IMG/VR virus record: IMGVR_UViG_2541047877_000006
Strand: one strand, 5' to 3'
DNA: 53,577 bases
From: a virus
Taxonomy: Duplodnaviria > Heunggongvirae > Uroviricota > Caudoviricetes
Shown here in pieces: positions 1 to 17,921 of this stretch. Made by a program: the position numbers and the translations under genes. A model generated the notes under the pieces. That model had not been told where the DNA came from. It worked only from the letters and a program-made list of their open reading frames with translations, and searched no databases. Every line of letters starts with the position of its first letter. The first letter of the stretch is position 1.

Positions 1-231
1 TTATGTGTTATCTTTGGCTGACGTTAAACCAATCCGATCAAAGAACTGCATTACGTCCTGATAGCGGTACATAACGCCACGCCCGGTCCCAAGTACGTCA
101 ACCGGGTCGGGGAACGGAGTTCCGTTCCGTTCCCATTTTTTACGCCATAAGTAAAACGTTCCCCTGCTAATTCCCCCAAGCATCCGGCAGATGGCAGGGC
201 GACTAAGAAGGATTGTCCCGGTTTTATCCAT
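1..231 (-). CDS. AlpA-family excisionase-like HTH regulator (76 aa)
   Basis: HTH_17-like pattern LSRPAICRMLGGISRGTFYLW...FPDPV; at left window edge, integrase expected just outside. Confidence 0.6.
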   Translation of the reverse strand: MDKTGTILLSRPAICRMLGGISRGTFYLWRKKWERNGTPFPDPVDVLGTGRGVMYRYQDVMQFFDRIGLTSAKDNT

Positions 232-893
232 TATTTATCCCCCGTGTATTCAACGTGTCCGATACATCCATCAATAATAGCTTGCGCCATATTGCGATAA
301 TCGCACGAAAAATCATTGTCGTGGTTAAAGTCAATCTCTTTTGCCGCGTCTTCACCCATAACATTGACAGCAAGTGCAAGCGCGATTTCAGCAAGTGCCT
401 TTTCTTTCGGATCTATATGCAGCTTGAAAGAGCATGTTGTCCATGATAGCGGCCTCTCGCCACAAAAATCTTCCTTGCTTTCACATATAGCCCATTTATC
501 ACCAACATATTTAAACCTGACGACATCAAGAATAGTTCCACTTGTCAAACCTACGCAATCAAGCCACACATTAACAGGAGGCTTATCACCTACGACCCAT
601 TCCGTTTTTTCTTGTTGTGTTTCGCAGTCACGGCGTTCATCTTCGATTAATCCATCAATAATTTCACTTTCTTTATTCATGCCGTCATCATCCTTGTTAG
701 ATAAATTAGCGTATTTATCAAATTTCCAGCTTGCCGCCATAACTGAATAAGTGCCGCGAGTATCAGCGCGGACGCCAACTAAATAGCATGATCCAAAATT
801 GTATTCCGTGCGGCATGTTGTTACCTCAAACGATGGGTAAACATCAGGGTTAGTGCGATGACGAATTATGCCAATTACTCTTGATTCACTCAT
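231..893 (-). CDS. hypothetical protein (220 aa)
   Basis: Long ORF; ATG at 893 preceded by GAGG; no domain recognised. Confidence 0.45.
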   Translation of the reverse strand: MSESRVIGIIRHRTNPDVYPSFEVTTCRTEYNFGSCYLVGVRADTRGTYSVMAASWKFDKYANLSNKDDDGMNKESEIIDGLIEDERRDCETQQEKTEWVVGDKPPVNVWLDCVGLTSGTILDVVRFKYVGDKWAICESKEDFCGERPLSWTTCSFKLHIDPKEKALAEIALALAVNVMGEDAAKEIDFNHDNDFSCDYRNMAQAIIDGCIGHVEYTGDK

Positions 894-908
894 TTTGTTT
901 ATCCTCAA

Positions 909-1085
909 TTACGCCACTGTTACATTGTCAACCTTAATAAAATATTCAGGATGATTTTCTATTTCGTGCTTAAAGTGCGCGTGACACAATCGCCACTCAC
1001 GCGCCTGGTTGTGAAAGTAATAAACGTATTCGCCATCAACCTTATACAAAATGCCTGTAGGTTTAGCCATGTAATAACTAGCCAT
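909..1085 (-). CDS. small hypothetical protein (58 aa)
   Basis: ORF below track cutoff; start overlaps ninB stop (TAATG coupling). Confidence 0.3.
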   Translation of the reverse strand: MASYYMAKPTGILYKVDGEYVYYFHNQAREWRLCHAHFKHEIENHPEYFIKVDNVTVA

Positions 1086-1516
1086 TATTGCCCCCAGCGT
1101 TTTATAAATTCCTCGTTTAATTTCGTATCACCTGACCATTGAACATTATGTTCAGCACCGAACGAGTAGATCAGTTCGATTAATTCGCTAAATTCCGCTT
1201 TACTCATCCGGCTGGTTGATGTTCCCAGCACAACAAAGCCTGATTTGTCCAGGTTAGGGACAACGCCATATTTCTTAAGCCCGGCAGTGAATACCGCCTT
1301 CCAGTCTTCAGGTGACAGCTTTCTGCCGTACCAGTTAACCTGATCGCTAACGTCTGTCAGCAACGCCCAAAGCAACGCGTTTTGACTCAGTGAGCGGGTT
1401 TTCTCCTGGATGGTGATTATCAGCGGGCTTTTGCTATCAGGCTGTATCTCCCTTATCTGCCTGATAGCGTTTTCTTTTACGGCGTCATTTACTATCTCAA
1501 ATCTTATTTGCCTCAT
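1085..1516 (-). CDS. ninB: recombination protein NinB (Orf family)
   Basis: 143 aa; close to lambda NinB over whole length (ITIQEKTRSLSQNALLWA, VVPNLDKSGFVVLGTSTSRMS). Confidence 0.8.
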   Translation of the reverse strand: MRQIRFEIVNDAVKENAIRQIREIQPDSKSPLIITIQEKTRSLSQNALLWALLTDVSDQVNWYGRKLSPEDWKAVFTAGLKKYGVVPNLDKSGFVVLGTSTSRMSKAEFSELIELIYSFGAEHNVQWSGDTKLNEEFIKRWGQ

Positions 1517-1710
1517 GATACATCGTTACTATTTTTCCACTGTGCCCGCGCATACATGATCGCCTGCAAAGAAATTAGGCGCGAGCTTGTCATAAAAGCG
1601 CCTTTTAAATGTTTCATATCAACCACAACAGGCTTATCAGGATCGTCGCAGCGCATGTATTCCGCAATTGTGCTTAAGTCTTCCACGGTCAAATCTAACT
1701 CCCTATTCAT
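1513..1710 (-). CDS. hypothetical protein (65 aa)
   Basis: ORF with AAGGGG SD; ATGA overlap with ninB start. Confidence 0.4.
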   Translation of the reverse strand: MNRELDLTVEDLSTIAEYMRCDDPDKPVVVDMKHLKGAFMTSSRLISLQAIMYARAQWKNSNDVS

Positions 1711-1719
1711 AATCGCCCC

Positions 1720-1926
1720 TTACACAATACGCATTGTGTTTCGTAATTCCCCGCGCAGCGCCCGCAGCGCGTCACGCATTGGTACAAAAAACCGGTTAAA
1801 TTTTACGTGTTTATATTTCCGCATTAGTGGCGGTGTATAAACCATCGCGCCGCAAGAATTGCATGGGAAACGGAAATGTGATTCATCAATGAATGTTTCA
1901 ACTGAATAAAAGATTACACGTCTCAT
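1720..1926 (-). CDS. hypothetical protein (68 aa)
   Basis: ORF; start overlaps upstream stop (ATGA coupling). Confidence 0.4.
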   Translation of the reverse strand: MRRVIFYSVETFIDESHFRFPCNSCGAMVYTPPLMRKYKHVKFNRFFVPMRDALRALRGELRNTMRIV

Positions 1927-2450
1927 AATTCCAACCCAGTTTCACCATTAAGTTTTTCGATCTCAAATACTGGTTTATCCGGCAGCAGGCCGTTATTTTT
2001 CCGGTATTCATTCAGGCGGTTGTTAAATTCAAATACGATAGGACTCGAACAACCATAGAAGCGAGCTGATCTAAAAAAGTATTTCCCATCAAATTTATTA
2101 ACTGTTAATAAATTTTCACTGCCTAACATCTTTAAAACCCGACAAATTTTCCTCTGTTTTATTTCGAGTTTTAATTCTTTTTTAACATCCTCAGCAGAAA
2201 AATAATCGCTACTATTCAGAAATAAAGGCATGATTTTTTTTATTGCCATTTCGCGCACTGACTTCAAGCAATATGATAATCGCGGCCCTCCCATTTCCAC
2301 AGGAATAATAGCGCCGTCAGAAACCATATCACGCAAACTATTAACGATCTCGATTTCAGGACCTGGAATAGATTTAATAATTGTTGCTTCACCAGCAACA
2401 GTGGCATCCTGTAAAAATTTCGCTATTTGTGTTTTATAAATGGTTTTCAT
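1923..2450 (-). CDS. hypothetical protein (175 aa)
   Basis: ORF; ATG at 2450 with GAGG SD; no domain recognised. Confidence 0.45.
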   Translation of the reverse strand: MKTIYKTQIAKFLQDATVAGEATIIKSIPGPEIEIVNSLRDMVSDGAIIPVEMGGPRLSYCLKSVREMAIKKIMPLFLNSSDYFSAEDVKKELKLEIKQRKICRVLKMLGSENLLTVNKFDGKYFFRSARFYGCSSPIVFEFNNRLNEYRKNNGLLPDKPVFEIEKLNGETGLEL

Positions 2451-2528
2451 TGTTTCTAGCCTCGATTTAAGCGCGAAAACAGCCACCAGAAAGCGGTAAA
2501 CTTTCCGGTAAGCCGTTTCTCAAGTTAA

Positions 2529-3950
2529 TTAAAAAGATGCGTTATTCTGGTTGTTTCGTGGTGAGAATCGGCTTGCAGACGGACGTTGTTGCATTGACTG
2601 GATGCAAGCTGACGCCGCGCGGGCCTGGTCGCATGGTAAGATGTTGCCGTTGTCGTCAAACCGCTGGTAAACAGTCCCCGTTTTCCCGTGACGGTTTTTT
2701 GAAACGATGATCTCCATGTATTCGCGGGCAACTGATTGTTCGTTGTAGTAGCCGTCGCGGTAGACCATGATGATCCGGTCTGCGTCTTGTTCAAGATTAC
2801 CGGAATCACGCAGATCAGAATTGTTCGGGCGCTTGTTCGGTCGTTCTTCAACGCGGCGGGATAATTGCGCCAGCGCCGCCACTGGCACGCGCAACTCTTT
2901 CGCCATCATTTTCAATGACCACGACAATTGCCCTACGGCGAGATCATGACGTTCGGCCTTAGCCAGTTTCATTAAACCGATGTAGTCAATCATCACCATT
3001 CCAAGATTAGGATGGTCCTGTTTCATCCGTTCGACGGTGGCGCGTATTTCCTCAACCGTTAACTGCGATGCGTCAACAATCCACACATCGAGATCGGCAA
3101 GGGCGCTCATCCCCTGGGTAACGTGCGCCCATCCTTCGTCATCCAGTTTTACCGGATTACGTAGGCAATCCGTTGATAAATTCCCAGCGCCAGCGATAGC
3201 TCGTTCAGTCATCTGATCGAGCGACATTTCAAGCGTGAACAGCAAAACGCCGACCCGCTGACCTTCTCCGCCAGGGTATTGGCGTTCAGCCGCCGCGCGG
3301 GCAATTGCCAACGCCAACGCCGATTTACCAGACCCTGGGCGTCCGGCGATAAGCACCAGATCAGTAGCGTTAATGCCGCCTAACATTTCGTCGAGTGGGT
3401 CAATCCCTGTTTTGATGTTGTCAGAGTTCACGCCACACTCCATGCGTTTACTTAGCACTTCCGTGTATTCCTGGACAGCATCGCGCAACAGCACCGGGAT
3501 AATCTGATCTTTTGTTACCTTTAATTTTGAATACCGGGAATCAAAATCTTTCATCGTCTCTTTGACGACCTCAAGAGTCCCCGTTTCCAGTTTGTAGCGC
3601 ATATCGTCGATGAGTTCCAACATCTGCCGACGCTGGTGCTCTTCACGTAGTAGCTGTGCGTATCCCTTCAGGTTGGCAGCAGAAGGGCACGATCGCGCCG
3701 TTTGCATTAGCGGCACAAAGTTTTCATTACCAATCTCATCACCAACCAGTAACGCGTCGATGAGATTTCTGTTTCTGGCTTGCGCACGGATAATTTCAAA
3801 AGCCCGCTTATATAGCGGAATAGTGAATACTTCAGGATCTAGAGTAGCGAGAACGTCTTGCGCGTTAGGAGTAAGCCCACCTAACAGCAGGCCACCGATA
3901 ACCGCAGATTCTCTTTCTTGCCGCAATGAGTTTACTTGTTCGGTTATCAT
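2529..3950 (-). CDS. DnaB-like replicative DNA helicase
   Basis: 473 aa; Walker A GRPGSGKS and DnaB-type RecA-like core; GGAGG SD. Confidence 0.85.
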   Translation of the reverse strand: MITEQVNSLRQERESAVIGGLLLGGLTPNAQDVLATLDPEVFTIPLYKRAFEIIRAQARNRNLIDALLVGDEIGNENFVPLMQTARSCPSAANLKGYAQLLREEHQRRQMLELIDDMRYKLETGTLEVVKETMKDFDSRYSKLKVTKDQIIPVLLRDAVQEYTEVLSKRMECGVNSDNIKTGIDPLDEMLGGINATDLVLIAGRPGSGKSALALAIARAAAERQYPGGEGQRVGVLLFTLEMSLDQMTERAIAGAGNLSTDCLRNPVKLDDEGWAHVTQGMSALADLDVWIVDASQLTVEEIRATVERMKQDHPNLGMVMIDYIGLMKLAKAERHDLAVGQLSWSLKMMAKELRVPVAALAQLSRRVEERPNKRPNNSDLRDSGNLEQDADRIIMVYRDGYYNEQSVAREYMEIIVSKNRHGKTGTVYQRFDDNGNILPCDQARAASACIQSMQQRPSASRFSPRNNQNNASF

Positions 3951-3968
3951 TATGGCATCGCCTCCGGT

Positions 3969-5087
3969 TTACAAAATGGAATATTCAGGGTAATAAACAA
4001 AGCGCCCGATTTCTCCATGATCCGGGCTGTAAATAATCACCGCTGCCAGCCGCCGCGACCGCCAACCACCATTCGTTGAATAAGCGTCTTTGCCAGCTAA
4101 CGTGCCGTGATACTCAACAACGCCTAACGATGACTCAATCAGCCGTTGATGATGCCAGTGCCCGCAATGAGCGTAAACAGCCGCAGATTTACCGAAATCT
4201 TCCCGCCAGTCAGATACGCAGGCCGCCAACAAGTTTTCCGGTTTTTTGATAGTATGACCGTGATGATATGCAAGGAATGTTTTGCCGTACTGTGTGTGGT
4301 GGACGATAGCAGGGGACACGTCAACCGTCACGCGCGGTTCATCTTCATAAAAAGCCGCCAGCGCCGCACGTAGCCAGATCATCCCTGATTGGTCGTGATT
4401 ACCGGATAATGTCTGGATCTCGACATCCTTATGATTTAGTAACATCTTCCCGACCGCACGCCGGACCGACCGGATCGCCACGTAAACCAGTTTTGCGTAG
4501 CGTGAATCGCAATCCAGGACGTGATTGCTTGATGGCGTCACTGGTAACAGGCCGTCAGTGTGAAGCACATCACCGCCGAGAAGTAAAACAGCCTTTTCAG
4601 ACATTGGCGCAGCGCCTACCGCGTAGTCGAAGAAATCATTTAGCACGCGTTCAGCGATCCCGGTGTCGTAGCTTTCGCCGCATTCAGCTTTATGAGCAAG
4701 CGCCCCGATATGTAGATCGAATACCGGATAAAGGGCCAGGCTTTTTTGGAAATCAATTTCCGGCACTGGCACGGCCTCCGCGCGTGGCATATCTTCCGTG
4801 AAAGCATCGCAAGCCGCTTGCATTAGCCTTTCCATTTCATCGCGATCACGGGCTGTTTTAATCCAGCGCATAATCACATTGCCATCCTTATCGACGAGCA
4901 AAGACTCACCATTGATGCCAAAACCAGGCGCGCGACGCGTGGATATTAAACCGCGCTTTGCCAATCGTGCGCCCAGGCGTTCGACGTTGCGTTTTGCCAT
5001 TCCATATTCTTCGGCTATTTGCTTGTAAGTTTTCCCATTGTTGTATTCAGCGATTAATTGCTCGTCGCTGATCTTTCTTTGCGACAT
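3969..5087 (-). CDS. HTH domain fused to calcineurin-like metallophosphoesterase
   Basis: N-terminal HTH (KTYKQIAEEYGMAKRNVERL); C-terminal motifs DLHIG, GGDVLH, GNHD, GHWHH (Mre11/SbcD-like set). Confidence 0.6.
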   Translation of the reverse strand: MSQRKISDEQLIAEYNNGKTYKQIAEEYGMAKRNVERLGARLAKRGLISTRRAPGFGINGESLLVDKDGNVIMRWIKTARDRDEMERLMQAACDAFTEDMPRAEAVPVPEIDFQKSLALYPVFDLHIGALAHKAECGESYDTGIAERVLNDFFDYAVGAAPMSEKAVLLLGGDVLHTDGLLPVTPSSNHVLDCDSRYAKLVYVAIRSVRRAVGKMLLNHKDVEIQTLSGNHDQSGMIWLRAALAAFYEDEPRVTVDVSPAIVHHTQYGKTFLAYHHGHTIKKPENLLAACVSDWREDFGKSAAVYAHCGHWHHQRLIESSLGVVEYHGTLAGKDAYSTNGGWRSRRLAAVIIYSPDHGEIGRFVYYPEYSIL

Positions 5088-5264
5088 AATGTTATTTCCT
5101 CCGGTTCACGGAATGAGTATTTATTCATAAAAAAACTAATTTTTATTAACATAGGTTTCACGGTGGCAAAAAATGCCAGTAGGGTTAATCAACAACTTAT
5201 GCAAATTGAAATAACTACTTAATGAATAACTAATCGTATACATTGTGGTTTACATTTTGTATAT

Positions 5265-6197
5265 TCATTGGCAGCAAACAATCTCTTTATATGCTTCTTC
5301 TACCATGTCGAATACTTCCGGCCTGTAATAAAAAAATTCATTGCTACCATCAAATTTTACAGTAAAGTTAATTTTATAATTGCTGAAATATTTATGCATC
5401 GTGCTTTCTAATTCTTGAACTTTTCCTGTTGGTCCTTCCCACGTCTTCACGATATGCAAATCATGGATTCTAACACCTGCTTTATGCGCGCTATTTAATA
5501 CCATATTTCTTCGCCTGTTCTCACTAACGCTCACGCCAATTTTCATCATCGTTGGCACTTCCAGATCATCAACCATGATGTAAATTTTTCCATACTCATG
5601 ACTAAGGAAACCGCTTTTCGCGCATTTCGGGCAGCCTTGCCCCTTTTTAAGGTTACTGGGTATAGCAGACCACTCATGACCGCAGACATTACAGCGGCAT
5701 AATACTTTTGTTGCGTTATTAACAATTTCGCCTATAACTTCAACATCAGGATTAACCTTCGCAATAGTCGCGATCTGTTCTTCGTGTGTTAAGGTTCTGA
5801 TTTGTGCTAGTTTTAAAGATTTACACTTCGGGCAGCCGTACCCACTTTTAAGGTTGTAAGGACTAACAGACCACTCATGATCACAAACTTTGCAGCGGCA
5901 CGGGACTTTATCCCTGGCGTTATTAACTTCCCCCAATACTTCAATATTTGGGTTAACTTTGGCTATATCTGCAATATGTTCTTCGTGTGTTAATGTTTTT
6001 TTTAACCTTGCGCATTTAGGGCAACCGTTCCCGTGTTTAAGGTTGTTAGGAGTAGCAGACCACTCATGATCACAAACTTTGCAGCGGCATGATACTTTTG
6101 TTGTGCTGCAGGTTACTTCCTCCAACACTTCAATATTTGGGTTAACTTTCTCAATAGCTGCAATTTGCTCTTCATGCGTTAACTTGCGTCTACCCAT
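5265..6197 (-). CDS. triple zinc-ribbon repeat protein with C-terminal T5orf172 (GIY-YIG-like) domain
   Basis: Three ~45-aa repeats LTHEE.IA.I.KVNP.IEV...CRCKVC.HEWS...GCPKC; C-terminal KIYIMV...KIGVS...ENRRR. Confidence 0.6.
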   Translation of the reverse strand: MGRRKLTHEEQIAAIEKVNPNIEVLEEVTCSTTKVSCRCKVCDHEWSATPNNLKHGNGCPKCARLKKTLTHEEHIADIAKVNPNIEVLGEVNNARDKVPCRCKVCDHEWSVSPYNLKSGYGCPKCKSLKLAQIRTLTHEEQIATIAKVNPDVEVIGEIVNNATKVLCRCNVCGHEWSAIPSNLKKGQGCPKCAKSGFLSHEYGKIYIMVDDLEVPTMMKIGVSVSENRRRNMVLNSAHKAGVRIHDLHIVKTWEGPTGKVQELESTMHKYFSNYKINFTVKFDGSNEFFYYRPEVFDMVEEAYKEIVCCQ

Positions 6198-6349
6198 AAT
6201 TCAACACCTCACAAATTACACAAAAACACTTCATACGCGCTACAACGCAAAAATTCCACCGCGACACCCGTTTGCACAGGTTGCAGTGTCTTATTGCGTC
6301 AGAGGCGCTATCAGGTGGCTAATTTTTGATTTACAGAATGGTAGGTGGG

Positions 6350-6451
6350 TTATGGATTGACTAGAAGGAACAAACCGCCGAACAAGGCGACGTTAACAGC
6401 GATTGCCGCAGCGATGGCAAAGGCCAGGGCGAAAACGTGTTTACCGTCCAT
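6350..6451 (-). CDS. small hydrophobic peptide (33 aa)
   Basis: MDGKHVFALAFAIAAAIAVNVALFGGLFLLVNP; GAGAGG SD 8 nt upstream. Confidence 0.3.
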   Translation of the reverse strand: MDGKHVFALAFAIAAAIAVNVALFGGLFLLVNP

Positions 6452-6583
6452 TTTAAAATCCTCTCTAAAACGCTCTATAACGAGCTAAACCGCTAAAGAT
6501 ATGAATCGTAGCACCATGCGTGTTTTAGCTCGCTGGTGAGGTTGTTTTGTGGGTAATTTTGGATTTTTGCGGATCGTGGTTGG

Positions 6584-7630
6584 TCAAAGAGCGCCTGCGC
6601 GTGTGTCGCGTAGCGTTTTTGGTTTAAGCAGGAAATCAAGTGTCGCTGTGAAGCCATTGCCGAAGTAAAAATCTGAAGCCGTGTTTTTGAATGTTTCGAA
6701 GTAGGCGACAAAGCCGTTAATGCTTTTGTCTTTCAGGTAGTCAGTGAACGCATAGATCTTGCGTTCAAGATCCCGATCCAGTTCGGCAGGTGGTAACAGG
6801 CCGTCAAACGTGCTGTTAAATGCTTCCACCACGTCGGCAGCGTTTACAGTAGCTGATAGCTTGCGCCATTGCTCAGCGTCAGCCAGATACCCATCGAATT
6901 TAGTTACCCGGCAAATGTTGATAGGCTTAGGTGTTCCACCACGGCTGCGCCATTGCGTCAAAGCCCATTCGATTACTAATGTGATCTCATCCTCCGTGTA
7001 TGCCTTACGTGTTTTTGTTTCTGTCAGTAGTTCGATAAATGGCTTAGCATCACGACTCTTGCATCCAGCTTTGTCGTTGTAGAAGGCCAAGCAACGCAAT
7101 GCCGCTTCGTTTACGCCATCCTGATTGACCGTTTTTTGTCCATTTTCGCTAATACACGAAGTGTATATATCTTTTTCTCTTTCTTCTTCTACTTCTAATT
7201 CATGACCCTTTCCTGACCCGGTCATGACCCTATCATGACCTTTTGGTGTTGGATTGATTAACTTCTCTAATTTTAATTGCTCCTTCGCTGTGTTTATAGC
7301 AGCCCTATAAGCGCTCTTAGAAGTCATTGATTGGTCCAGCCTTTTTAATAACTTTAGGCAAGTTATGTGGCCTTGAGAACATTCGAACAAACCAATTTCG
7401 ATGAAGTATTTCATCATTTCTTCTATACGTTTTTCAGTAGATCCGACGTTTCGCGCAATGATTCTCGCGTCATGTCGTAGGTCAAAATTCAGATTGTGCT
7501 GATCTACGTCATAAGTTATTAGTTCGAGGCAATACCAATAAAGCCCGTACCCTTCCAGGCCATAATCTAACAAAACGTTTTGAAGTTTTTCATCGCGGTT
7601 CGCATCGCTGTCATGCTTAAACCACTTCAT
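6584..7630 (-). CDS. phage replisome organizer / replication initiation protein
   Basis: 348 aa; N-terminal MKWFKHDSDANRDEKL...GLEGYGLYWYCLE motif; same operon as helicase. Confidence 0.7.
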   Translation of the reverse strand: MKWFKHDSDANRDEKLQNVLLDYGLEGYGLYWYCLELITYDVDQHNLNFDLRHDARIIARNVGSTEKRIEEMMKYFIEIGLFECSQGHITCLKLLKRLDQSMTSKSAYRAAINTAKEQLKLEKLINPTPKGHDRVMTGSGKGHELEVEEEREKDIYTSCISENGQKTVNQDGVNEAALRCLAFYNDKAGCKSRDAKPFIELLTETKTRKAYTEDEITLVIEWALTQWRSRGGTPKPINICRVTKFDGYLADAEQWRKLSATVNAADVVEAFNSTFDGLLPPAELDRDLERKIYAFTDYLKDKSINGFVAYFETFKNTASDFYFGNGFTATLDFLLKPKTLRDTRAGAL

Positions 7631-7633
7631 AGA

Positions 7634-7891
7634 TCATCCCTCCGGCAACATCACTACATAGACATCACTGAATGCATCAAGACGACAAACAAATCCTTTA
7701 TCCATTAACGCGGCGAAGGCATCATGTACCGTATGAACAGGAAGTTCACACATTGCGGCTACTTCTTTGCGTGATGCATCATGTACCCGTCCTTTGTTAT
7801 CTGCCTTTTCAGCCAGAGCCATTAAGACAAGTTTTTGAATCGGGCTATTAAGTTTTACGTTCCATGCTTTACTAATCATGTTCATACTCAT
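7634..7891 (-). CDS. winged-helix/HTH DNA-binding protein in Cro position
   Basis: 85 aa from ATG 7891 (AGGAG SD); first gene of leftward operon, divergent from cI. Confidence 0.4.
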   Translation of the reverse strand: MSMNMISKAWNVKLNSPIQKLVLMALAEKADNKGRVHDASRKEVAAMCELPVHTVHDAFAALMDKGFVCRLDAFSDVYVVMLPEG

Positions 7892-8105
7892 CGCATTTTC
7901 TCCTATGGTTAGAGTGAACGCGCGGGCGGGCATCCCATTAGCATTAGATAGCAGTGACTGACCGCTCAACAGATCCCGCCGTTGCGTGATATTTGTTTTT
8001 CGCTTCGCAGCGACACCGGATTTTTAAAGAGCATAAGGTAAGTGCCTTTTTGTGCCTTCAGTTATCTTTTTCCTTGCGTCTTTGCAAGTATGGCCTTACC
8101 TTGTC

Positions 8106-8163
8106 TGCAAGTTTACAAAATGGAATTTTAAGATCAAGGCTTAAAATACACGTTTTGTGACTT
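8106..8163. promoter_or_regulatory. nested imperfect palindrome in cI upstream region (operator-like)
   Basis: TGCAAGTTTACAAAA...TTTTAAG atcaagg CTTAAAA...TTTTGTGACTTGCA; arms match 14/15. Confidence 0.4.
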
Positions 8164-8196
8164 GCATCAAACTTTTTGAGGTTATAGGGTAGCGAC

Positions 8197-8844
8197 ATGA
8201 AAACAAAATGGTATGACTTAGCAAAGCAGCTCATGCGGGCGCAGGGCATGAGCCAGGATTCACTCGCGGATCGTATGGGGATAACTAAAGGCGGCCTGTC
8301 ACACTGGCTGAACGGTCGCCGAGAGCCAAATCTTGAAGATATTGCGCGGATTATGCGCGAGCTTGGTCGTCGGCAGTTTACTGTTACACATGATGGCATG
8401 GTCATTGATGATTCTGTTTCTAATACACTTCAGGCCGTGCCGCCGCGTGATTTAGGTAGTTACCCGGTTATTGACTGGAAGGACACAGTAAACAATATGG
8501 ATGACGCAAGGCGTTCAGCATTACGACACGTTACGACTAGCGTTATTTGTTCAGATGACAGTTACTGGCTGGTTGCCAAAGGTGAATCAATGAACGCGCC
8601 GCAGGGGTTGAGCATCCCGGCGGGGACGATGATACTTGTGGACCCGCACGCGCCAGCTATTGACGGCAAACTGGTTATAGCCCAGCTTGAGGAAGGGCAG
8701 ATACCGACGTTTAAACAGTTGATTATTGATGGAGGTCAAAGGCTTTTACGTTCGCTCAATCCGCTGTATCCGCCAATCCCTATGAATCCAGAATCAAAAA
8801 TTATAGGCGTGGTGGTTGATGCGAAGATCGTAAACCTGCCATAA
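8197..8844 (+). CDS. cI: CI-like repressor (HTH-XRE plus S24 LexA-like peptidase)
   Basis: 215 aa; N-terminal HTH (MSQDSLADRMGITKGGLSHWLNGRREP); C-terminal GESM serine and lysine of S24 autopeptidases. Confidence 0.8.
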   Translation: MKTKWYDLAKQLMRAQGMSQDSLADRMGITKGGLSHWLNGRREPNLEDIARIMRELGRRQFTVTHDGMVIDDSVSNTLQAVPPRDLGSYPVIDWKDTVNNMDDARRSALRHVTTSVICSDDSYWLVAKGESMNAPQGLSIPAGTMILVDPHAPAIDGKLVIAQLEEGQIPTFKQLIIDGGQRLLRSLNPLYPPIPMNPESKIIGVVVDAKIVNLP

Positions 8845-8849
8845 ACATT

Positions 8850-8875
8850 AGCCGCCGAATGGCGGCTTTTCTTTG
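8850..8875 (+). terminator. rho-independent terminator after cI
   Basis: AGCCGCC gaat GGCGGCT hairpin followed by TTTCTTTG. Confidence 0.6.
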
Positions 8876-8956
8876 CCTGGGAAACACCAAAACGTAAACA
8901 GAAAACGTTATTTATTATTTAAATATCAATGGCATATAAAATATTTTAAAAAAGTA

Positions 8957-8996
8957 TACAAAATGGATTGACTCGATGTTTTACGGGGCGTATATT
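8957..8996 (+). promoter_or_regulatory. pL-like sigma70 promoter with upstream TACAAAATGG element
   Basis: -35 TTGACT (8968-8973), 17-nt spacer, -10 TATATT (8991-8996); TTGACTCG/CGAGTCAA inverted repeat brackets it. Confidence 0.55.
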
Positions 8997-9250
8997 GCGA
9001 GTCAAAGGAAGGGCGCAGGTAACAAAAGCAACTTCCTGGCACTTTAAAAATCAGGCTTAACACCTTGTCAACCGTGGAGTAACTCCCCGATGGGGGACCG
9101 AAAGCGGCACTGATAACAAGGCGCATGGGGTGTTTAAAGCGTTACATCCCCCACGAAACCGCACGCAAGGCGACGAGTCAGCTTGCTTGGAGTGAGCAAG
9201 GTCACGCCGGGAACGGCGATGATTGCGGGATTAGTTGAAAGATGTTAAGC

Positions 9251-9288
9251 CGCTCATTAACAATCTGGTCAGCCGCTGGAAGTGCGGC
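9251..9288 (+). promoter_or_regulatory. nutL-like site (boxA plus boxB hairpin)
   Basis: boxA CGCTCATTAACAA (cf. CGCTCTTTAACAA), 8-nt gap, boxB GCCGC-tggaagt-GCGGC stem-loop. Confidence 0.5.
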
Positions 9289-9344
9289 AATTAACGAAGA
9301 TGATTTTTTATTAAGTATCATCAAGGATATACGGAGATCAGATT

Positions 9345-9635
9345 ATGAGCGTTACAATTATATATGGTAAATGTGATAGCAAAATGAATGCCAGGGAACG
9401 CAGAAGGATAAAAAGAGAAAACGAAAGAAAATCATCACCTGCAATCAATAAAACAGACAATGTGGATAAAGCTATTCGATTTGCAAACGAGGAAAGATGC
9501 AAACCAAATAGCATTAAAGAACGTCGCAAAGGATCAGTAAAATGGTATACGGAAAATGAAAGCGGCAGCTACTACCACGCAACGCAACCACGCCATTTAG
9601 GGGAAAAACCCCTGGATAAAGTCCGCTACCATTAA
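9345..9635 (+). CDS. N-like antitermination protein
   Basis: Arginine-rich motif MNARERRRIKRENERK (from ATG 9384) like lambdoid N; directly downstream of nutL-like site. Confidence 0.5.
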   Translation: MSVTIIYGKCDSKMNARERRRIKRENERKSSPAINKTDNVDKAIRFANEERCKPNSIKERRKGSVKWYTENESGSYYHATQPRHLGEKPLDKVRYH

Positions 9636-9665
9636 TACAAAATGTAAACATCCGGAGATGACATT

Positions 9666-9788
9666 ATGGTTATTCAGGCGCTTCAATTCAAACTGGCAGT
9701 AGCGGAAATGCTTCACGATGCCGAAATGTGGAGCGCCGCGAATAAAGCCTTATACATAGTGTTAACAGCACGGGAGATTAAATGGTGA
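9666..9788 (+). CDS. small hypothetical protein (40 aa)
   Basis: GGAG SD; stop overlaps erf start (ATGGTGA). Confidence 0.25.
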   Translation: MVIQALQFKLAVAEMLHDAEMWSAANKALYIVLTAREIKW

Positions 9789-10426
9789 AAACAGAGTTAC
9801 ATAAAAAGCTATGGACGATTCAGCAAACGCTGAACGCGCCGAAAAATCAGCGTAATAATTTTGGTGGATATAATTACAGGTCGGCGGAGGATATTTTAGA
9901 GGCGGTTAAACCACTGCTTCAAAGTATTACGCTGACTGTAAGCGATGAAATTGTCCTGATCGGCAATCGCTATTATGTGAAAGCTACGGCGACGCTAAGC
10001 GACGGTGAAGACGAAATAGCGGTAACGGCTTACGCCAGGGAAGAAGAAAGCAAGAAGGGAATGGACGCAAGCCAGCTAACAGGTGCGACATCAAGTTACG
10101 CGCGAAAATATGCTTTGAACGGTTTATTCTGCATTGATGATGCGCGAGATCCTGATACTGACGCATACGCTAAGCAGACAGGCCAGCAGCCTCGCCAGCA
10201 GAAAAACCCACCAAAACAACAACCACAGCAGCAGAAAGCGCCGCCAAATCCTGATGAAGTATTAGCACGTTTCTGTGATGCAGCAGCGAAAGCGCAGGAC
10301 GCTAACAAGCTGCGTGAAATATTTGGCAAATGCTGGAAATTACTACCGGAAGGATCGGAACATCGAATCAAGGCAAAAGATGTTTATGACATCCGGGTAG
10401 CAGAGCTTAACGGGGAGATGGGTTAA
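9782..10426 (+). CDS. erf: Erf-family ssDNA-annealing recombinase
   Basis: 214 aa; ERF-like N-terminal core; Q/P-rich linker; adjacent to ssb. Confidence 0.8.
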   Translation: MVKTELHKKLWTIQQTLNAPKNQRNNFGGYNYRSAEDILEAVKPLLQSITLTVSDEIVLIGNRYYVKATATLSDGEDEIAVTAYAREEESKKGMDASQLTGATSSYARKYALNGLFCIDDARDPDTDAYAKQTGQQPRQQKNPPKQQPQQQKAPPNPDEVLARFCDAAAKAQDANKLREIFGKCWKLLPEGSEHRIKAKDVYDIRVAELNGEMG

Positions 10427-10830
10427 TGAGTTTAAATTCAATCACGCTGGGCGGGAATATCGGTAATGATATGGAGGTTCGCTACACACAAAACGGGAAA
10501 GCGATTGGTAGTTTTCCGTTAGCTGTAACGAATGGCTACGGCGATAATAAGCGGACAATGTGGGTCACTTGCCTGGTATTTGGTGAGCGTGCGGAAAAAT
10601 TAGCGCCACATATCCGCAAGGGTGGAAAAATAGTGGTAAGCGGTCGCCTGGATGTTCGGCAATATGACCGGAACGACGGCACGAAGGGAACGGCGGTAGA
10701 AGTGGCGGTTAACGAATTTGAATTCATGAACGTTAACCAACAAGGCCAGCAGCAGAAAGCGCCTCCGCAGCAGCAGAATAATAACGGGAATAATCCGCCG
10801 ATGGACTTTGATGACGATATCCCGTTTTGA
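10426..10830 (+). CDS. ssb: single-stranded DNA-binding protein
   Basis: OB-fold SSB pattern; Gln-rich linker; acidic C-terminal tail DFDDDIPF. Confidence 0.85.
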   Translation: MSLNSITLGGNIGNDMEVRYTQNGKAIGSFPLAVTNGYGDNKRTMWVTCLVFGERAEKLAPHIRKGGKIVVSGRLDVRQYDRNDGTKGTAVEVAVNEFEFMNVNQQGQQQKAPPQQQNNNGNNPPMDFDDDIPF

Positions 10831-10845
10831 TCCAATAGGTTAGCG

Positions 10846-11124
10846 ATGGTTGATTATCTAAAACCGCCACCACCGCCACGAACAAAAGAGCAAGTATTAA
10901 AAGAAGCCCGTGATCAAATCGATCGCGGGCTTTTTTTATGCGGCACGGCAGCGGAACGGATGGCAAAAAGATTTAGTGACCTGTACGCAAAACAAATATG
11001 GTTCGACAACTGGCAGGCAAGTTTTTATCCGCTGCAAAGAAAACCGGATATGCACTGGCCTGAATATGTCGATCCACGTATGCGCAAATATCGCGGGCGT
11101 ATGGGCCAGGTCATTAACGATTAA
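10846..11124 (+). CDS. hypothetical protein (92 aa)
   Basis: ORF in early operon; no domain recognised. Confidence 0.45.
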   Translation: MVDYLKPPPPPRTKEQVLKEARDQIDRGLFLCGTAAERMAKRFSDLYAKQIWFDNWQASFYPLQRKPDMHWPEYVDPRMRKYRGRMGQVIND

Positions 11125-11136
11125 TGAGGTGTTATC

Positions 11137-11361
11137 ATGATTGAAGAAAAAGAAGTAGACAAGGAAATTCCTGACGGTTGTGATGAGCTTATTTGTTTTG
11201 ACGGCGGCCTGTATGAGTTCGAAACGTCTGCAGGGTGGCACGATAAATGGCCTAAGCCTACTCGCCAGGAATTAAGCGACCGTAAATCATTCGGCGAAGA
11301 TGCCGAACGGCTGGCTAATAACAAATGGCTTGATAAGTTAATTGCGGAGGGTGGCAAATGA
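11137..11361 (+). CDS. hypothetical protein (74 aa)
   Basis: ORF; acidic; no domain recognised. Confidence 0.45.
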   Translation: MIEEKEVDKEIPDGCDELICFDGGLYEFETSAGWHDKWPKPTRQELSDRKSFGEDAERLANNKWLDKLIAEGGK

Positions 11362-11471
11362 GCTTTGCAAAAATTGCCGCATTGCTTGCGGCTTTATCTA
11401 TCGCCGTGCTGTATCTCAGTGTATCTCTTTATATCACGGTAGCGATCATTAAACTCATTACTAACATGTGA
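11358..11471 (+). CDS. small membrane peptide (37 aa)
   Basis: MSFAKIAALLAALSIAVLYLSVSLYITVAIIKLITNM; GGAGG SD; ATGA overlap with upstream stop. Confidence 0.4.
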   Translation: MSFAKIAALLAALSIAVLYLSVSLYITVAIIKLITNM

Positions 11472-11479
11472 GGCCAATC

Positions 11480-11599
11480 ATGAAAGTCGGTAAGGATATT
11501 GTGACTGTCGCGTTTTGCATTATTTGCTTCCTGTTTGTGGTTGTTTCTTGTGGCGCATTTGCTGCGTTGGTTAGCTTTATTTTTAGAGGGTTGCCGTGA
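11480..11599 (+). CDS. small membrane peptide (39 aa)
   Basis: MKVGKDIVTVAFCIICFLFVVVSCGAFAALVSFIFRGLP; GAGG SD. Confidence 0.4.
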   Translation: MKVGKDIVTVAFCIICFLFVVVSCGAFAALVSFIFRGLP

Positions 11600-11871
11600 T
11601 GAAAACATGGGATGCAAAGGCTGGTGATCTTGTTGTGTTGCCTGAATATCGTGATGACCCTGGCCTGGTTGTACTGAATAAGATATATAACGATCTCGAG
11701 CGCCCGCTAGTGGTTAAATACCTGGACGGAACAATCATAGAACCGCGCTACTTTGATGAGATTGAACTAAAGGCCCACAATGTTCGCGTTAAGCCGTTCC
11801 GTGCTTATGTTGAAAACCACTGGCGGAAATTGTTCGCCGGACTGAATGGGATGTTTGGCGTATGGCTATAA
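11599..11871 (+). CDS. hypothetical protein (90 aa)
   Basis: ORF; ATG 11599 overlaps upstream stop. Confidence 0.45.
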   Translation: MKTWDAKAGDLVVLPEYRDDPGLVVLNKIYNDLERPLVVKYLDGTIIEPRYFDEIELKAHNVRVKPFRAYVENHWRKLFAGLNGMFGVWL

Positions 11872-12053
11872 AATTAGTGAAAGTTAAAGACCTGAAAGGC
11901 GGCGAAAAGATCCGCACGTGGTATGGCTATAAATTTATTGTCGCTGCCTTTTCTTTCGGGTCAGGGGGTCAAGTAACATTATTTGATGAAGAAGACGACG
12001 AGGTGGGTAAATGGCATCTTGAACAATATGTTGAGGTGTTAAATGAAAATTAA
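11862..12053 (+). CDS. hypothetical protein (63 aa)
   Basis: ORF overlapping neighbours; no domain recognised. Confidence 0.4.
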   Translation: MAIKLVKVKDLKGGEKIRTWYGYKFIVAAFSFGSGGQVTLFDEEDDEVGKWHLEQYVEVLNEN

Positions 12054-14284: not shown

Positions 14285-14824
14285 ATGAAAAATGATTACG
14301 GCGGCAGCCATACGCCGAAAGAAATAAAGGACTTATGGCAAACGCCAAAACCCGTTTTTAGAGGAATGGATCGAGAATTCGAGTTCGTCGCGGATGTGGC
14401 GGCAAACAAGGCAAACGCATTAATACCGCGATATATAACCGAAGAAATGGACACGCTCCATTATCCGTGGGGAGCGGTGGCGATGCCTGGTGAGTATGTC
14501 TGGATGAATCCGCCATATTCTAATCCGGGGCCATTCGTTGATAAAGCGGCGCTTGAACACAGCCGAAATCATATCGGATGCGTAATGTTATTGCCCGCTG
14601 ACATTTCTGTTAGCTGGTTTATGAACGGCGTGGAGACGGCAAACGAATGCCGATTAATCACGCGCGGGCGGCTGGCGTTTATCAATGCTGCAACAGGGAA
14701 ACCAGTAAGCGGGAACAATAAGGGGAGCTTGTTCCTGATCTGGCATCCACGATGCAGACATGAATGTATTTTCACGCAGATAACACGTAAAGAGCTATAT
14801 GCAAGAGGTGCAGAAAATGAATAA
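14285..14824 (+). CDS. phage Dam-like DNA N6-adenine methyltransferase
   Basis: WQTP motif, catalytic NPPY (VWMNPPYSN), LLPADISVSWF; typical phage Dam-family layout. Confidence 0.8.
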   Translation: MKNDYGGSHTPKEIKDLWQTPKPVFRGMDREFEFVADVAANKANALIPRYITEEMDTLHYPWGAVAMPGEYVWMNPPYSNPGPFVDKAALEHSRNHIGCVMLLPADISVSWFMNGVETANECRLITRGRLAFINAATGKPVSGNNKGSLFLIWHPRCRHECIFTQITRKELYARGAENE

Positions 14825-15137
14825 AGCGGCTGAATTGCTGAGACTTGCGGCTGAAACTATCGAGGCAAGAGGGGAGCAAAACGGATACGATCGAAAAGAA
14901 GAAAAATCAGCGCCAAAAATAGCGGCTATTTTCAACGCTAAGATGAATGCGAATTTAACCCCACTTGATGTATGGGATCTAATGATTTGCCTCAAGGAAG
15001 CGCGTTTAGGGGCTATTCTCGCTAATGGAACTGATCCGCTCGACACTCTTATAGACCTTATTGCTTATAACGCGCTTAAGGCCGAACAGATATTAGCGTA
15101 TCGGGAGGAAGAGCTAAATGAAGATGGTGGCAATTGA
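14817..15137 (+). CDS. hypothetical protein (106 aa)
   Basis: ORF with GAGGTG SD; between the two methyltransferase-like genes. Confidence 0.45.
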   Translation: MNKAAELLRLAAETIEARGEQNGYDRKEEKSAPKIAAIFNAKMNANLTPLDVWDLMICLKEARLGAILANGTDPLDTLIDLIAYNALKAEQILAYREEELNEDGGN

Positions 15138-15621
15138 CAGGTTATTAGCCTGCGTTTATGTCGCCGTTTTCGTTATCATCAATCTTATTGTTAACCACTG
15201 TGGCACGTGGGTAATTCCGATCACCACGGTAGCCGCCGTGTGTGTCAATATGATGATTCGTGATTTTCTGTTATATGACGGCGGCCTTAAATGGTCGGCT
15301 ACAACATGCGCCGCCGCTGGCGCAATCACGGTGCTGATAAATTACGACGCCGGAATGGTGGCGATCGCGTCATTCGTCGCGGTTGTTTCCGGTGCGCTTA
15401 TTTCTGGCGGCGTTTACCGGGTTTTACCTGGTGATTTCGATTCTAAACGCTGGCCTGCAAATATAGCGTCCGCCATTGGCGATGCGTTAATTTTCCCAAC
15501 GCTATCGTTTATGGCATTCATGCCGGAAATATCAGCTATGCAATTCATCTCAAAAATGGCGGCGGTAACGGTGATCACTATCATCATGCGCCGCTACTTT
15601 ACGTTCGAGGGTAGGAAATGA
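15118..15621 (+). CDS. integral membrane protein, possibly YhhQ/VUT-family transporter-like
   Basis: 167 aa, about five hydrophobic helices; family assignment is from memory and tentative. Confidence 0.35.
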   Translation: MKMVAIDRLLACVYVAVFVIINLIVNHCGTWVIPITTVAAVCVNMMIRDFLLYDGGLKWSATTCAAAGAITVLINYDAGMVAIASFVAVVSGALISGGVYRVLPGDFDSKRWPANIASAIGDALIFPTLSFMAFMPEISAMQFISKMAAVTVITIIMRRYFTFEGRK

Positions 15622-16382
15622 GTGGGCTTAGAAATTGGGTGGTGTGGTCGCTGTACGACGGCAGCGGATACGCCGTTAAAGATTGGGCCGACGCTGGTTA
15701 TAAATGCTATTGCTTCAACTATGATGGCGCTAATCACGGCGATTATGAAGGCGTCAAAATCATTCATCCGAACATTGAGTATATCAACGTATGGATTGAC
15801 AGCCATTTCCTGGTAATGTTCTCCCCTGAATTGTCTGTTTATCCAGATCCTGACATTATCCTGGGCTTTCCTCCGTGCGACGATCTTGCGGTGTCCGGCG
15901 CTCGCTGGTTTGCTGATAAGCGGAAAAAAGATCCTTACTTCCAGCAGAAGGCGGCATACAACGCAAAACTGGTAGAAACGCTTGCTGATATGTACCACGT
16001 CCCGTGGATGGTGGAAAATCCGGTAGGTGCGCTGTCAACGTTATGGCGCAAACCTGATTTTATCTTCAACCCGTGCGCTTACGGTGGCTACCTGCCTGAA
16101 GACGACAAACACCCTGCTTTCCCTGAATACATAGCTGCCCGCGACGCATACACGAAGAAAACTTGTATCTGGTGCGGGAATGGATTTAAGCAGCCGCTAT
16201 TCCGGTCTGTACCTATGCCGGATGAATGGGAAGACAGCAAACAGCACGCGAAGTTAGGAGGAAAGTCGAAACGCACTAAGATGATCCGCTCACTAACGCC
16301 GCGCGGCTTTGCCCGTGCTGTATTCTTGGCTAACGACCGGGCCATCACTCGTACTACGCTTAACCGCATTTTACCGGACTAA
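15618..16382 (+). CDS. compact DNA cytosine-5 methyltransferase-like protein
   Basis: Motif-I-like LYDGSGY, motif-IV-like GFPPCDD (Cys nucleophile), motif-VI ENPVG; only 254 aa, atypical PCDD. Confidence 0.45.
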   Translation: MSGLRNWVVWSLYDGSGYAVKDWADAGYKCYCFNYDGANHGDYEGVKIIHPNIEYINVWIDSHFLVMFSPELSVYPDPDIILGFPPCDDLAVSGARWFADKRKKDPYFQQKAAYNAKLVETLADMYHVPWMVENPVGALSTLWRKPDFIFNPCAYGGYLPEDDKHPAFPEYIAARDAYTKKTCIWCGNGFKQPLFRSVPMPDEWEDSKQHAKLGGKSKRTKMIRSLTPRGFARAVFLANDRAITRTTLNRILPD

Positions 16383-16404
16383 AGTTTACAAAATGGCATC
16401 ATTG

Positions 16405-16420
16405 TGTGATGCGGATCACA
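16405..16420. promoter_or_regulatory. CRP-box-like palindrome
   Basis: TGTGATGCGGATCACA matches TGTGA-N6-TCACA; flanked by inverted TACAAAATGG copies. Confidence 0.4.
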
Positions 16421-16541
16421 TAATGGCGCTTTTTGTCTTGTTTGGGGGTATCCATTTTGTATACTTCAAGCAAACAAAATGCTCTTTAAAAATCCGGCAG
16501 CGCTGAAATGCGTAGAAATCACCTGAAAAGGAGAGAGCATT

Positions 16542-16718
16542 ATGTCTTTTGATGATTACCAATGGCATGACGACTATGAACGAGAAAGCGTCATGCGTGC
16601 AATGTGCAATGTATGCAGCACGAAGAAAGGAGGCTGTAACGAGTGCAACGAATGCTTAGAACATTGGCTAAGGGCCGGACACGCCGAAAGGCTGAACGAA
16701 ACAGAGAATCAAAAATAA
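16542..16718 (+). CDS. small Cys-rich protein (58 aa)
   Basis: AAGGAGAG SD; CNVC...CNECNEC cysteine cluster. Confidence 0.4.
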   Translation: MSFDDYQWHDDYERESVMRAMCNVCSTKKGGCNECNECLEHWLRAGHAERLNETENQK

Positions 16719-16732
16719 TCGGGGTGGTTTTT

Positions 16733-17338
16733 ATGCAAAACCCTAAAAAACCCATAAGACGCCGTTGCAAATGCTGCGGCGTTTTTTTTGAGCCTAAATA
16801 TCACAATCAAACGTGGTGCAGTGACGAATGTCTGGAAGAACTGAAGTTTGATCAGCTATGCCGCGACCGTGAGAAGGCTATGAAGGCTATGGAACGGAAG
16901 AAACGCCGTGATAGCCAGCGTGAAGAACGCAACCGGAAGCGTAAACAGTTAAATCCGCGTAGTTATTGGATCAAACAAGTTCAAAATGTATTTAACGCCT
17001 ATATTCGCGAACGTGACGCGCGGTTGCCCTGTATATCCTGCGGGACTTACTACGGTGAGCAATGCGGATGGGATGCGGGCCATTATAGGACGGTTGCCGC
17101 CGCCGGACACCTTCGCTTTAACGAGGATAATTGCCATAAACAATGCAGGCACTGCAACCAGACATTAGACGGAAATATAGGAGGATATCGCCCGGCACTG
17201 ATTCGAAAAATTGGCCTCGCCAGGGTGGTAGCACTGGAGAACAACAATGATACGCATAAATGGACGATCGCAGAATGTAAGGAGCTAATAAACATCTATC
17301 AGGCGAAATTGGACGCCTTAAGGAGAAAGGCAGCATGA
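16733..17338 (+). CDS. ninG: recombination protein NinG (Rap)
   Basis: RRRCKCC...WCSDEC, PRSYWIKQ, LPCISCG, WDAGHYR, LRFNE.N.HKQC as in lambda NinG. Confidence 0.85.
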   Translation: MQNPKKPIRRRCKCCGVFFEPKYHNQTWCSDECLEELKFDQLCRDREKAMKAMERKKRRDSQREERNRKRKQLNPRSYWIKQVQNVFNAYIRERDARLPCISCGTYYGEQCGWDAGHYRTVAAAGHLRFNEDNCHKQCRHCNQTLDGNIGGYRPALIRKIGLARVVALENNNDTHKWTIAECKELINIYQAKLDALRRKAA

Positions 17339-17736
17339 ACGAATATACATTTAGCCTACCTTACCCGCCATCGAACAATAAATATTACCGGCATTCGCGC
17401 GGTTTCCACTATATAAGCAAGGAAGGTAAGGAATACAGGGAGCAGGTAAAAGACATTATAAAACTGCTTAATCTGAAAATTAATCTTAAGTGTAGGCTAT
17501 CAATAACGGTGTATATTGCACCGCCAGATAACAGACGCCGCGATATTGACAATGTAGGGAAGGCATTATTTGACGCTATAACTTATTCCGGTTTTTGGGC
17601 TGATGATAGCCAGGTTGACGCAATGAAATTTGTCCGCTGCCGGAAGGTAAAAAGAGGGCGATTGTTTATCAAGGTACGCGAACGCGGCGACCTGTTACCG
17701 GATATTAACGAATACTTGACTAATATGTGGTGGTAA
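17335..17736 (+). CDS. rusA: RusA Holliday junction resolvase
   Basis: LPYPPSNNKYYRH...RRRDIDNVGKALFDAIT..GFWADDSQV matches RusA family. Confidence 0.9.
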   Translation: MNEYTFSLPYPPSNNKYYRHSRGFHYISKEGKEYREQVKDIIKLLNLKINLKCRLSITVYIAPPDNRRRDIDNVGKALFDAITYSGFWADDSQVDAMKFVRCRKVKRGRLFIKVRERGDLLPDINEYLTNMWW

Positions 17737-17738
17737 CA

Positions 17739-17921
17739 ATGAAAAACGAAATTAAAGATCTGCAAATAGATATTCAGCGCGACGAGCATGATTTGGAAAC
17801 TGTACGACAAATACAGGTTTTCCACATGCGAGAATTGCTTGCGCTTAAAGAGCTTGAAAGAAAGCTAGTGCAATCAATATCTGATCGCAAAAGACTGGTT
17901 GCACGTTACGGGGGTAAATAA
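17739..17921 (+). CDS. hypothetical coiled-coil protein (60 aa)
   Basis: ORF from ATG 17739; no domain recognised. Confidence 0.4.
   Translation: MKNEIKDLQIDIQRDEHDLETVRQIQVFHMRELLALKELERKLVQSISDRKRLVARYGGK

Follow-up and report, generated by a model that had tools for sequence, protein, structure and literature searches.

The virus record IMGVR_UViG_2541047877_000006 (53,577 nucleotides (nt); hereafter, the window, that is, the whole stretch of DNA analyzed) is a complete or near-complete genome of a temperate coliphage of the mEp021, or "mEpimmI", group. Its minus strand carries a complete gene (3969..5087; coordinates separated by two dots refer to the minus strand throughout) that encodes a 372-amino acid (aa) protein in which an N-terminal helix-turn-helix (HTH) is joined to a metallophosphoesterase (MPE) domain and that is an orthologue of ST16 (gene 16) of coliphage T1. 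Judging from the conservation of its residues, this protein is almost certainly a catalytically competent binuclear MPE of the Mn/Fe type. Rather than a loader of the helicase or an initiator, it is a conserved accessory enzyme, the gene for which occupies a slot that collects homing endonuclease genes. As for its role, we lean, with modest confidence, toward an HTH-tethered, Mn/Fe-dependent phosphodiesterase that would act on nucleic acid in phage DNA metabolism. The first-pass annotation of this locus, made from the sequence alone, had described an unusual HTH-MPE fusion next to a helicase gene; the fusion is borne out by the open reading frame (ORF), by the predicted folds, and by the full motif set, whereas "unusual" does not apply, given that this gene is among the commonest accessory DNA-metabolism genes of enterobacterial siphoviruses.

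The catalytic domain (residues 113-368; 3984..4751) contains all five motifs of the MPE superfamily (DxH, GD, GNH[DE], H, and GxH), and across 140 aligned representatives, which are only 29-57% identical to the window protein, the key residues either do not vary or are conserved in at least 95%. Motif I is D124-L-H126-I-G128 (4704..4718), with D124 and H126 invariant; motif II is G171-G-D173-V-L-H176 (4560..4577; G172 and D173 invariant, H176 conserved in 96%); motif III is G229-N230-H231-D232 (4392..4403; N230 and H231 invariant, D232 in 95%); motif IV is H275-H276-G277-H278 (4254..4265; H276 invariant, G277 in 97%); and motif V is G309-H310-W-H312-H313 (4149..4163; H312 invariant, H310 in 95%). 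The four strings originally pointed out, DLHIG (124-128), GGDVLH (171-176), GNHD (229-232), and GHWHH (309-313), are all found in the translation, and the catalytic residues, the possible absence of which had been raised as grounds for abandoning the MPE proposal, are present and invariant or nearly so. Because the full binuclear metal-binding and catalytic set is conserved, activity of the enzyme is almost certain. Purifying selection on the gene is strong: the ratio of nonsynonymous to synonymous substitution rates (dN/dS) within the mEp group is 0.05-0.09, in the same range as that of the neighboring DnaB gene.

Structure prediction, which had been proposed as a check, yields both parts of the fusion. 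The AlphaFold2 model, built from a 32-sequence alignment (overall predicted local distance difference test (pLDDT) score of 77.9), shows an MPE beta-sandwich at residues 114-365, preceded by a three-helix HTH. Within the catalytic domain lies a family-specific loop (residues 178-196; 4500..4556) in which D178, T184, L191, D192, D194, and R196 are 93-99% conserved; despite this strong conservation across the family, residues 179-194 are modeled with pLDDT below 50. The loop may be a lid or a partner-binding element.

The HTH (residues 8-44; 4956..5066) consists of helices 8-16, 21-28, and 32-44 (pLDDT 83-87) and appears to be of a type like that of GerE and region 4 of sigma-70. The window protein itself gives only weak Pfam HTH matches (E about 0.02, below the Pfam thresholds); the family profile matches the GerE HTH (1fse; E 0.005), and one relative, P0157, exceeds the Pfam gathering thresholds for HTH_28 and HTH_23. 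Altogether, the assignment of the N-terminus as an HTH is moderately supported. The segment is basic (net charge +6, isoelectric point 10.2) and is followed by a linker module (residues 59-112; 4752..4913) that is modeled as a beta-hairpin (60-77) and a long helix (79-98) with pLDDT of 55-65 and contains two residues conserved family-wide, G69 (93%) and W75 (95%).

Under the mechanism that we favor, the basic GerE/sigma region 4-like HTH would tether a phosphodiesterase core resembling those of SbcD, Mre11, and DP1 to DNA, and the tethered enzyme would cut or trim nucleic acid, the candidate substrates being ends, flaps, hairpins, or blocked 3' termini; in the window phage, the gene would be transcribed early, alongside the replication genes. 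The link to DNA comes from the conserved, basic HTH, from the co-orientation of the window gene with the replication genes, and from the annotated contexts in Drexlerviridae, in which the MPE gene is grouped with genes for a helicase, Dam methylase, polynucleotide kinase, and deoxynucleoside monophosphate (dNMP) kinase (PMC13164509). The polynucleotide kinase could also be read as a sign of a different activity, namely, that of a phosphodiesterase acting on small molecules (cyclic or linear (oligo)nucleotides) or, together with this kinase, on RNA ends carrying 2',3'-cyclic phosphates during RNA repair, with the HTH playing a regulatory or localizing part instead of binding the substrate. We regard such an activity as improbable. 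An N-terminal extension of at least 40 aa is present in 99% of 142 relatives, with an HTH wherever the extension can be typed, a pattern difficult to reconcile with a small-molecule enzyme; the adjacency to polynucleotide kinase is confined to some Drexlerviridae; and PADLOC, PHROG, and Pfam searches do not connect the protein with any known anti-CBASS, Pycsar, or Thoeris enzyme.

The family to which the protein belongs is very large. The match to PHROG 704 ("DNA repair exonuclease") has an E-value of 1.2e-137 and aligns residues 4-368 with profile positions 2-387 of 390; the protein of phage MagusPhagus annotated under the same name is 96.5% identical to that of the window, and the orthologues in T1 (ST16) and in Webervirus SmellyBerry show 55% and 61% identity, respectively. 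Homologues were detected in 2044 phage records, 1959 of them near full length, from phages of Escherichia, Klebsiella, Salmonella, Vibrio, Rhodobacter, Synechococcus, and others; clustering at 50% identity gives 4268 clusters at E<=1e-3 and 915 at E<=1e-30. In Drexlerviridae, the gene was reported in 2026 to be present in 508 of 522 genomes, upstream of the lysis cassette (PMC13164509). A paper on the mEpimmI phage group does not mention it (PMC11893012). For the protein itself, only PHROGs and the family profile were informative: direct searches of Pfam, NCBIfam, PADLOC, and PDB sequences produced nothing for the catalytic domain, a second homologue search, seeded with seven aligned distant relatives, recovered the close set already obtained, and a BFVD fold search found uncharacterized phage proteins only. 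This is an annotated, very common, and experimentally uncharacterized phage gene family that is already known, and the only unusual trait of the window copy, in itself an ordinary, already annotated member of little importance, is that it lies, as in the mEp group generally, in the replication operon. Other readings of the locus were considered and discarded, namely, a spurious ORF and a hidden RNA gene; as to the latter, neither strand of the MPE locus matches Rfam or tRNA models, and the window as a whole contains zero tRNA genes and no Rfam family at gathering score on either strand.

The location of the gene immediately upstream of a helicase gene was correctly noted in the first-pass annotation: the gene for a DnaB-type replicative helicase (2529..3950; Pfam DnaB_C, E 6e-76, and a DnaB N-terminal domain), which is 55% identical to the gp12 helicases of the P22 group, starts 18 nt downstream of the MPE gene. 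The accompanying argument, that a helicase loader or initiator would be expected at this position, does not hold. The initiator, with a Lin1244_N N-terminal domain and an O-like C-terminal domain (Pfam and PHROG), is encoded upstream (6584..7630), and its last 87 residues (262-348) share 35% identity with the terminal part of the P22 gene 18 product. Inside the initiator gene, four TCMTGACC iterons with an 11-bp spacing (7200-7240), with no other copies in the window, adjoin a pyrimidine/AT-rich tract (7166-7199); the iterons probably mark the origin of phage replication, which, like that of lambda and P22, would lie within the initiator gene. A small HTH protein of the replication module (7634..7969) matches PHROG 4617 ("replication initiation protein", E 9e-23). 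The order of these co-oriented genes is, accordingly, the HTH protein, the initiator with its internal origin, a homing-endonuclease-like gene, MPE, and DnaB. In P22, ST104, BTP1, and related phages, gene 18, which is O-like, runs straight up to gene 12, and a loader gene does not intervene. Because the initiator and its HTH partner are both present, and because the initiator and helicase genes abut in P22, the replication module of the window needs no MPE gene to be complete, and there is no vacant position for a loader.

Apart from the adjacency to the helicase, one could conceive of the protein as a loader, or as a non-catalytic organizer of replication in which the MPE fold provides scaffolding, the way it does in the B-subunits of eukaryotic polymerases, which are inactive. 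This appears to us highly improbable. The invariance of the catalytic residues is the opposite of what is seen in the inactivated B-subunits; P22-type initiator-helicase modules work without a loader; and searches of Pfam (E<=10), NCBIfam (E<=1), and PHROGs found no similarity to the loader families (DnaC/IstB AAA+, lambda P, DnaD/DnaB-2), so that the other reservation attached to the original proposal, that the protein might be a standard helicase loader, falls as well. Furthermore, the linkage to the helicase is confined to the mEp group. The alternative mentioned in the first-pass annotation, an accessory insertion, was roughly right as to position: the initiator is separated from the helicase by two inserted genes, MPE and a zinc-finger/T5orf172 gene.

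This conclusion on linkage comes from a survey of 12 hand-picked annotated contexts, or phage lineages, a comparison that had also been called for and that went against a general association with the helicase. The MPE orthologue adjoins the replicative helicase only in the mEp group, and there is no DnaB linkage in the phages of the other 11 lineages (T1, Rogunavirus, Webervirus, Jerseyvirus, Kagunavirus, Vibrio, Rhodobacter, Ruegeria, Sulfitobacter, Synechococcus, and Enterobacter); Enterobacter phage Mulvp2 was checked for the MPE-DnaB linkage, and the gene downstream of its orthologue is not DnaB. In T1, Rogunavirus, and Webervirus, the lysis cassette lies downstream of the orthologue, and genes for a helicase and Dam methylase precede it; in some cases, polynucleotide kinase and dNMP kinase genes come next after it. 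In Jerseyvirus and Kagunavirus, it belongs to an opposite-strand island among the tail genes; this island of the Guernseyvirinae is small and also carries a superinfection-immunity or Ant gene, a typical accessory position. In the Vibrio, Rhodobacter, and Sulfitobacter phages, the orthologue is found near lysis genes, and in the Rhodobacter and Synechococcus phages, it also adjoins DNA methylase genes; in Ruegeria phage V16, the matching ORF itself is annotated as "DNA methylase".

Some of these contexts suggest another target for the same kind of enzyme, that is, a host-takeover or counter-defence nuclease that degrades or nicks the host chromosome, supplying nucleotides to the dNMP kinase or silencing defence genes. 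Such a role would still fall under the nuclease model and would differ from it in the target. The accessory island of Guernseyvirinae, with its superinfection-immunity or Ant gene, would fit such a role, and in Drexlerviridae that lack the SH3 gene, the polynucleotide kinase and dNMP kinase genes most often follow the MPE gene (PMC13164509), as is the case in SmellyBerry. There is also a possible parallel in Gp48 of mycobacteriophage A10ZJ24, a phosphodiesterase of the MPE type reported to damage the integrity of the host genome (PMC12287305). Nevertheless, we consider host takeover unlikely. The window phage is temperate, and its MPE gene appears to be co-transcribed with replication genes; Gp48 is related at the superfamily level only (hhalign probability of 9.7% for its Bxb1 homologue); and the protein has neither a match to PADLOC or anti-defence families nor an experimental link to such functions. 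A role as a component of a defence system was rejected, with no PADLOC match.

Within the mEp group, the MPE gene lies upstream of DnaB in every member examined (the window, MagusPhagus, mEp021, and three E. coli prophage contigs), and yet the slot is mosaic. Compared with the window, the related E. coli prophage L014 encodes DnaB, NinB, and repressor proteins that are 94%, 97%, and 90% identical, respectively, but an MPE that is only 59% identical; the synonymous divergence (dS) between L014 (6001-9066) and the window (2529-5087) is 1.72 for MPE vs 0.46 for DnaB. The initiator of L014 differs from that of the window as well (30% identity).

The gene upstream of MPE (5265..6197) contains three tandem repeats of about 200 nt that encode DUF4379/CapR zinc fingers, along with a nuclease-like T5orf172/MUG113 domain (Pfam and PHROG). 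Its guanine-plus-cytosine (GC) content is 40% and that of the spacer between it and MPE (5088-5264) is 28%, the MPE and DnaB genes being at 51%. A T5orf172-type gene is not found at the corresponding site in MagusPhagus and is larger in mEp021. The gene looks like a mobile insertion of the homing endonuclease type.

On the other side of MPE, between it and DnaB, mEp021 and the prophages carry an HNH gene that the window lacks. A single HNH family (35-61% identity) is found directly downstream of MPE in T1, Rogunavirus AHP42, mEp021, E. coli prophages, and a Vibrio phage (42028-42510 in T1 (L017), 5203-5694 in L009, 6080-6583 in L008, 7118-7645 in L014, and 7208-7717 in L004), a pattern suggestive of a homing site located at the MPE 3' end or close to it. 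Because the slot is mosaic and endonuclease genes recur in it, the data suggest that virulent T1-like phages and temperate ones have exchanged MPE alleles, a process in which homing endonucleases have probably assisted.

Several other features of the locus and of the window were recorded in passing. The MPE gene starts with ATG, with a ribosome-binding site, GGAGG (5098-5102, minus strand, read directly from the sequence), 10 nt upstream. A 22-nt direct repeat, CTKAAWWTTCCATTTTGTAAAC on the minus strand, occurs at 3967-3988 and 8111-8132 (20 of 22 positions identical; 0.01 matches expected by chance); the first copy covers the MPE stop codon and the MPE-DnaB spacer, and the second one is next to the gene for the cI-like repressor, within the early regulatory region. 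This repeat could serve in regulation or in recombination. The 31-nt translation-initiation regions of DnaB (3948-3978) and MPE (5085-5115) are 74% identical and have the form CAT..TCCTCCGGTT.AC..AATG on the plus strand; this likeness may be due to chance or may reflect a module junction that serves cassette exchange. At the scale of the genome, bases 1-12000 of the window show about 88% nucleotide identity to phages mEp515, mEp010, mEp554, and others, and the window contains two DNA methyltransferase genes (14285-14824 and 15618-16382).

A number of observations weigh against the proposal that the protein is an HTH-tethered phosphodiesterase acting on nucleic acid. The MPE domain is mildly acidic across the family (median net charge of -6) and its conserved loop is Asp-rich, unlike the surface expected of a DNA-binding protein. 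The window protein has no match to Pfam Metallophos (PF00149/PF12850) even at E<=10; its membership at the Pfam level is transitive because it is relatives, namely, P0157 (22.5 bits), P0198 (24.0), and P0182 (25.1), rather than the protein itself that exceed the cut-off of 21.5 bits. No missing nuclease step is evident in the window because the phage has a P22-like recombination and late-control set consisting of Erf, SSB, Abc2 (anti-RecBCD), NinB, NinG/Rap, RusA, and a Q-like antiterminator (9782-11124, 1085-1516, and 14285-18643). Compared with SbcD and Mre11, the protein lacks the C-terminal capping domain, in place of which it has the N-terminal HTH, and no gene for a Rad50/SbcC ATPase adjoins MPE in any of the 12 contexts. 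The precedent of Bxb1 gp47 is only an analogy because the two proteins do not belong to the same family. Finally, literature searches on the HTH-MPE family returned genome descriptions only, with no functional study among them.

If the HTH-MPE family were a nuclease working directly with the phage replisome, or else the host-DNA degradation function of T1, two readings that we view as doubtful, a first function would be obtained for this gene, which about 97% of Drexlerviridae and thousands of other phages carry, and the conserved, disordered, Asp-rich loop (178-196) could be a new substrate- or partner-recognition element. The HTH-MPE family is a reasonable experimental target, being persistent in T1-like phages, present in more than 2000 sequenced phages, and subject to strong purifying selection; the mEp/K-12 system, which is temperate and genetically tractable and has the MPE gene in the replication operon, would be convenient for finding the function.

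Comparison with known systems helps to define which kind of MPE this is. The highest comparison scores were obtained with S. aureus SbcD (14.1), the MJ0936 phosphodiesterase (13.6), and the PolD DP1 exonuclease (13.0), followed by the Pol delta B-subunit (12.7), LpxH (12.6), and E. coli SbcD with several Mre11 proteins (12.1-12.4), as opposed to 8.1-8.9 for PPP-type protein phosphatases. The motif variants GDxxH and GNHD are typical of Mre11, and the window protein contains them, as GGDVLH and GNHD. The first-pass annotation had put the motif set closer to Mre11/SbcD-type nucleases than to phosphatases of the lambda type. The fold class stands (12.1-14.1 vs 8.1-8.9), and the specific Mre11/SbcD label is too strong because there is no capping domain, for which no space is left given that the protein ends directly after the MPE core, because no Rad50/SbcC gene is adjacent, and because MJ0936, LpxH, and DP1 score almost equally. 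The ranking also leaves room for a small-molecule phosphodiesterase. In the comparison of the family profile with PDB sequences, T. maritima SbcD/Mre11 was the only MPE to appear, with E-values of 0.18-0.8 that are not significant and with coverage of motifs I-II, and Foldseek against the PDB gave generic MPE matches without subfamily resolution.

The protein phosphatase of phage lambda (NinI, PPP family) shares the superfamily with the window protein and is also phage-encoded, and lambdoid phages carry NinI-type phosphatases in their nin regions. A Ser/Thr/Tyr protein phosphatase of this kind was therefore considered as well. The PPP motif set (GDxHG, GDxVDRG, GNHE) is, however, absent from the window protein; this reading was rejected, and we give it hardly any credence. 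PolD DP1 and the polymerase B-subunits differ at the N-terminus, where the window protein has an HTH and a hairpin instead of an OB fold; the B-subunits are catalytically dead, whereas the window protein retains every catalytic residue; and the genes that flank MPE encode DnaB and the homing-endonuclease-like protein rather than a polymerase, an observation on the flanks only, the rest of the window not having been systematically screened. The MPEs of cluster A mycobacteriophages (Bxb1 gp47, the recombination directionality factor, and A10ZJ24 Gp48) are about 255 aa long and have no HTH, and common family membership with gp47 was rejected, the hhalign alignment extending over 39 columns and covering motifs IV-V only. 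By analogy with Bxb1 gp47 or DP1, the window protein might be a nuclease coupled to replication or recombination and working directly with the replisome, or else the unassigned host-DNA degradation function of T1, both of which we view as doubtful. The close counterpart is T1 ST16 with the rest of PHROG 704, a persistent gene of Drexlerviridae and Guernseyvirinae for which the name "DNA repair exonuclease" is an annotation only: here, the family, the end-to-end architecture, and the motifs are those of the window protein, and it is the location that differs, upstream of the lysis cassette in Drexlerviridae and between the initiator and DnaB in the temperate window phage.

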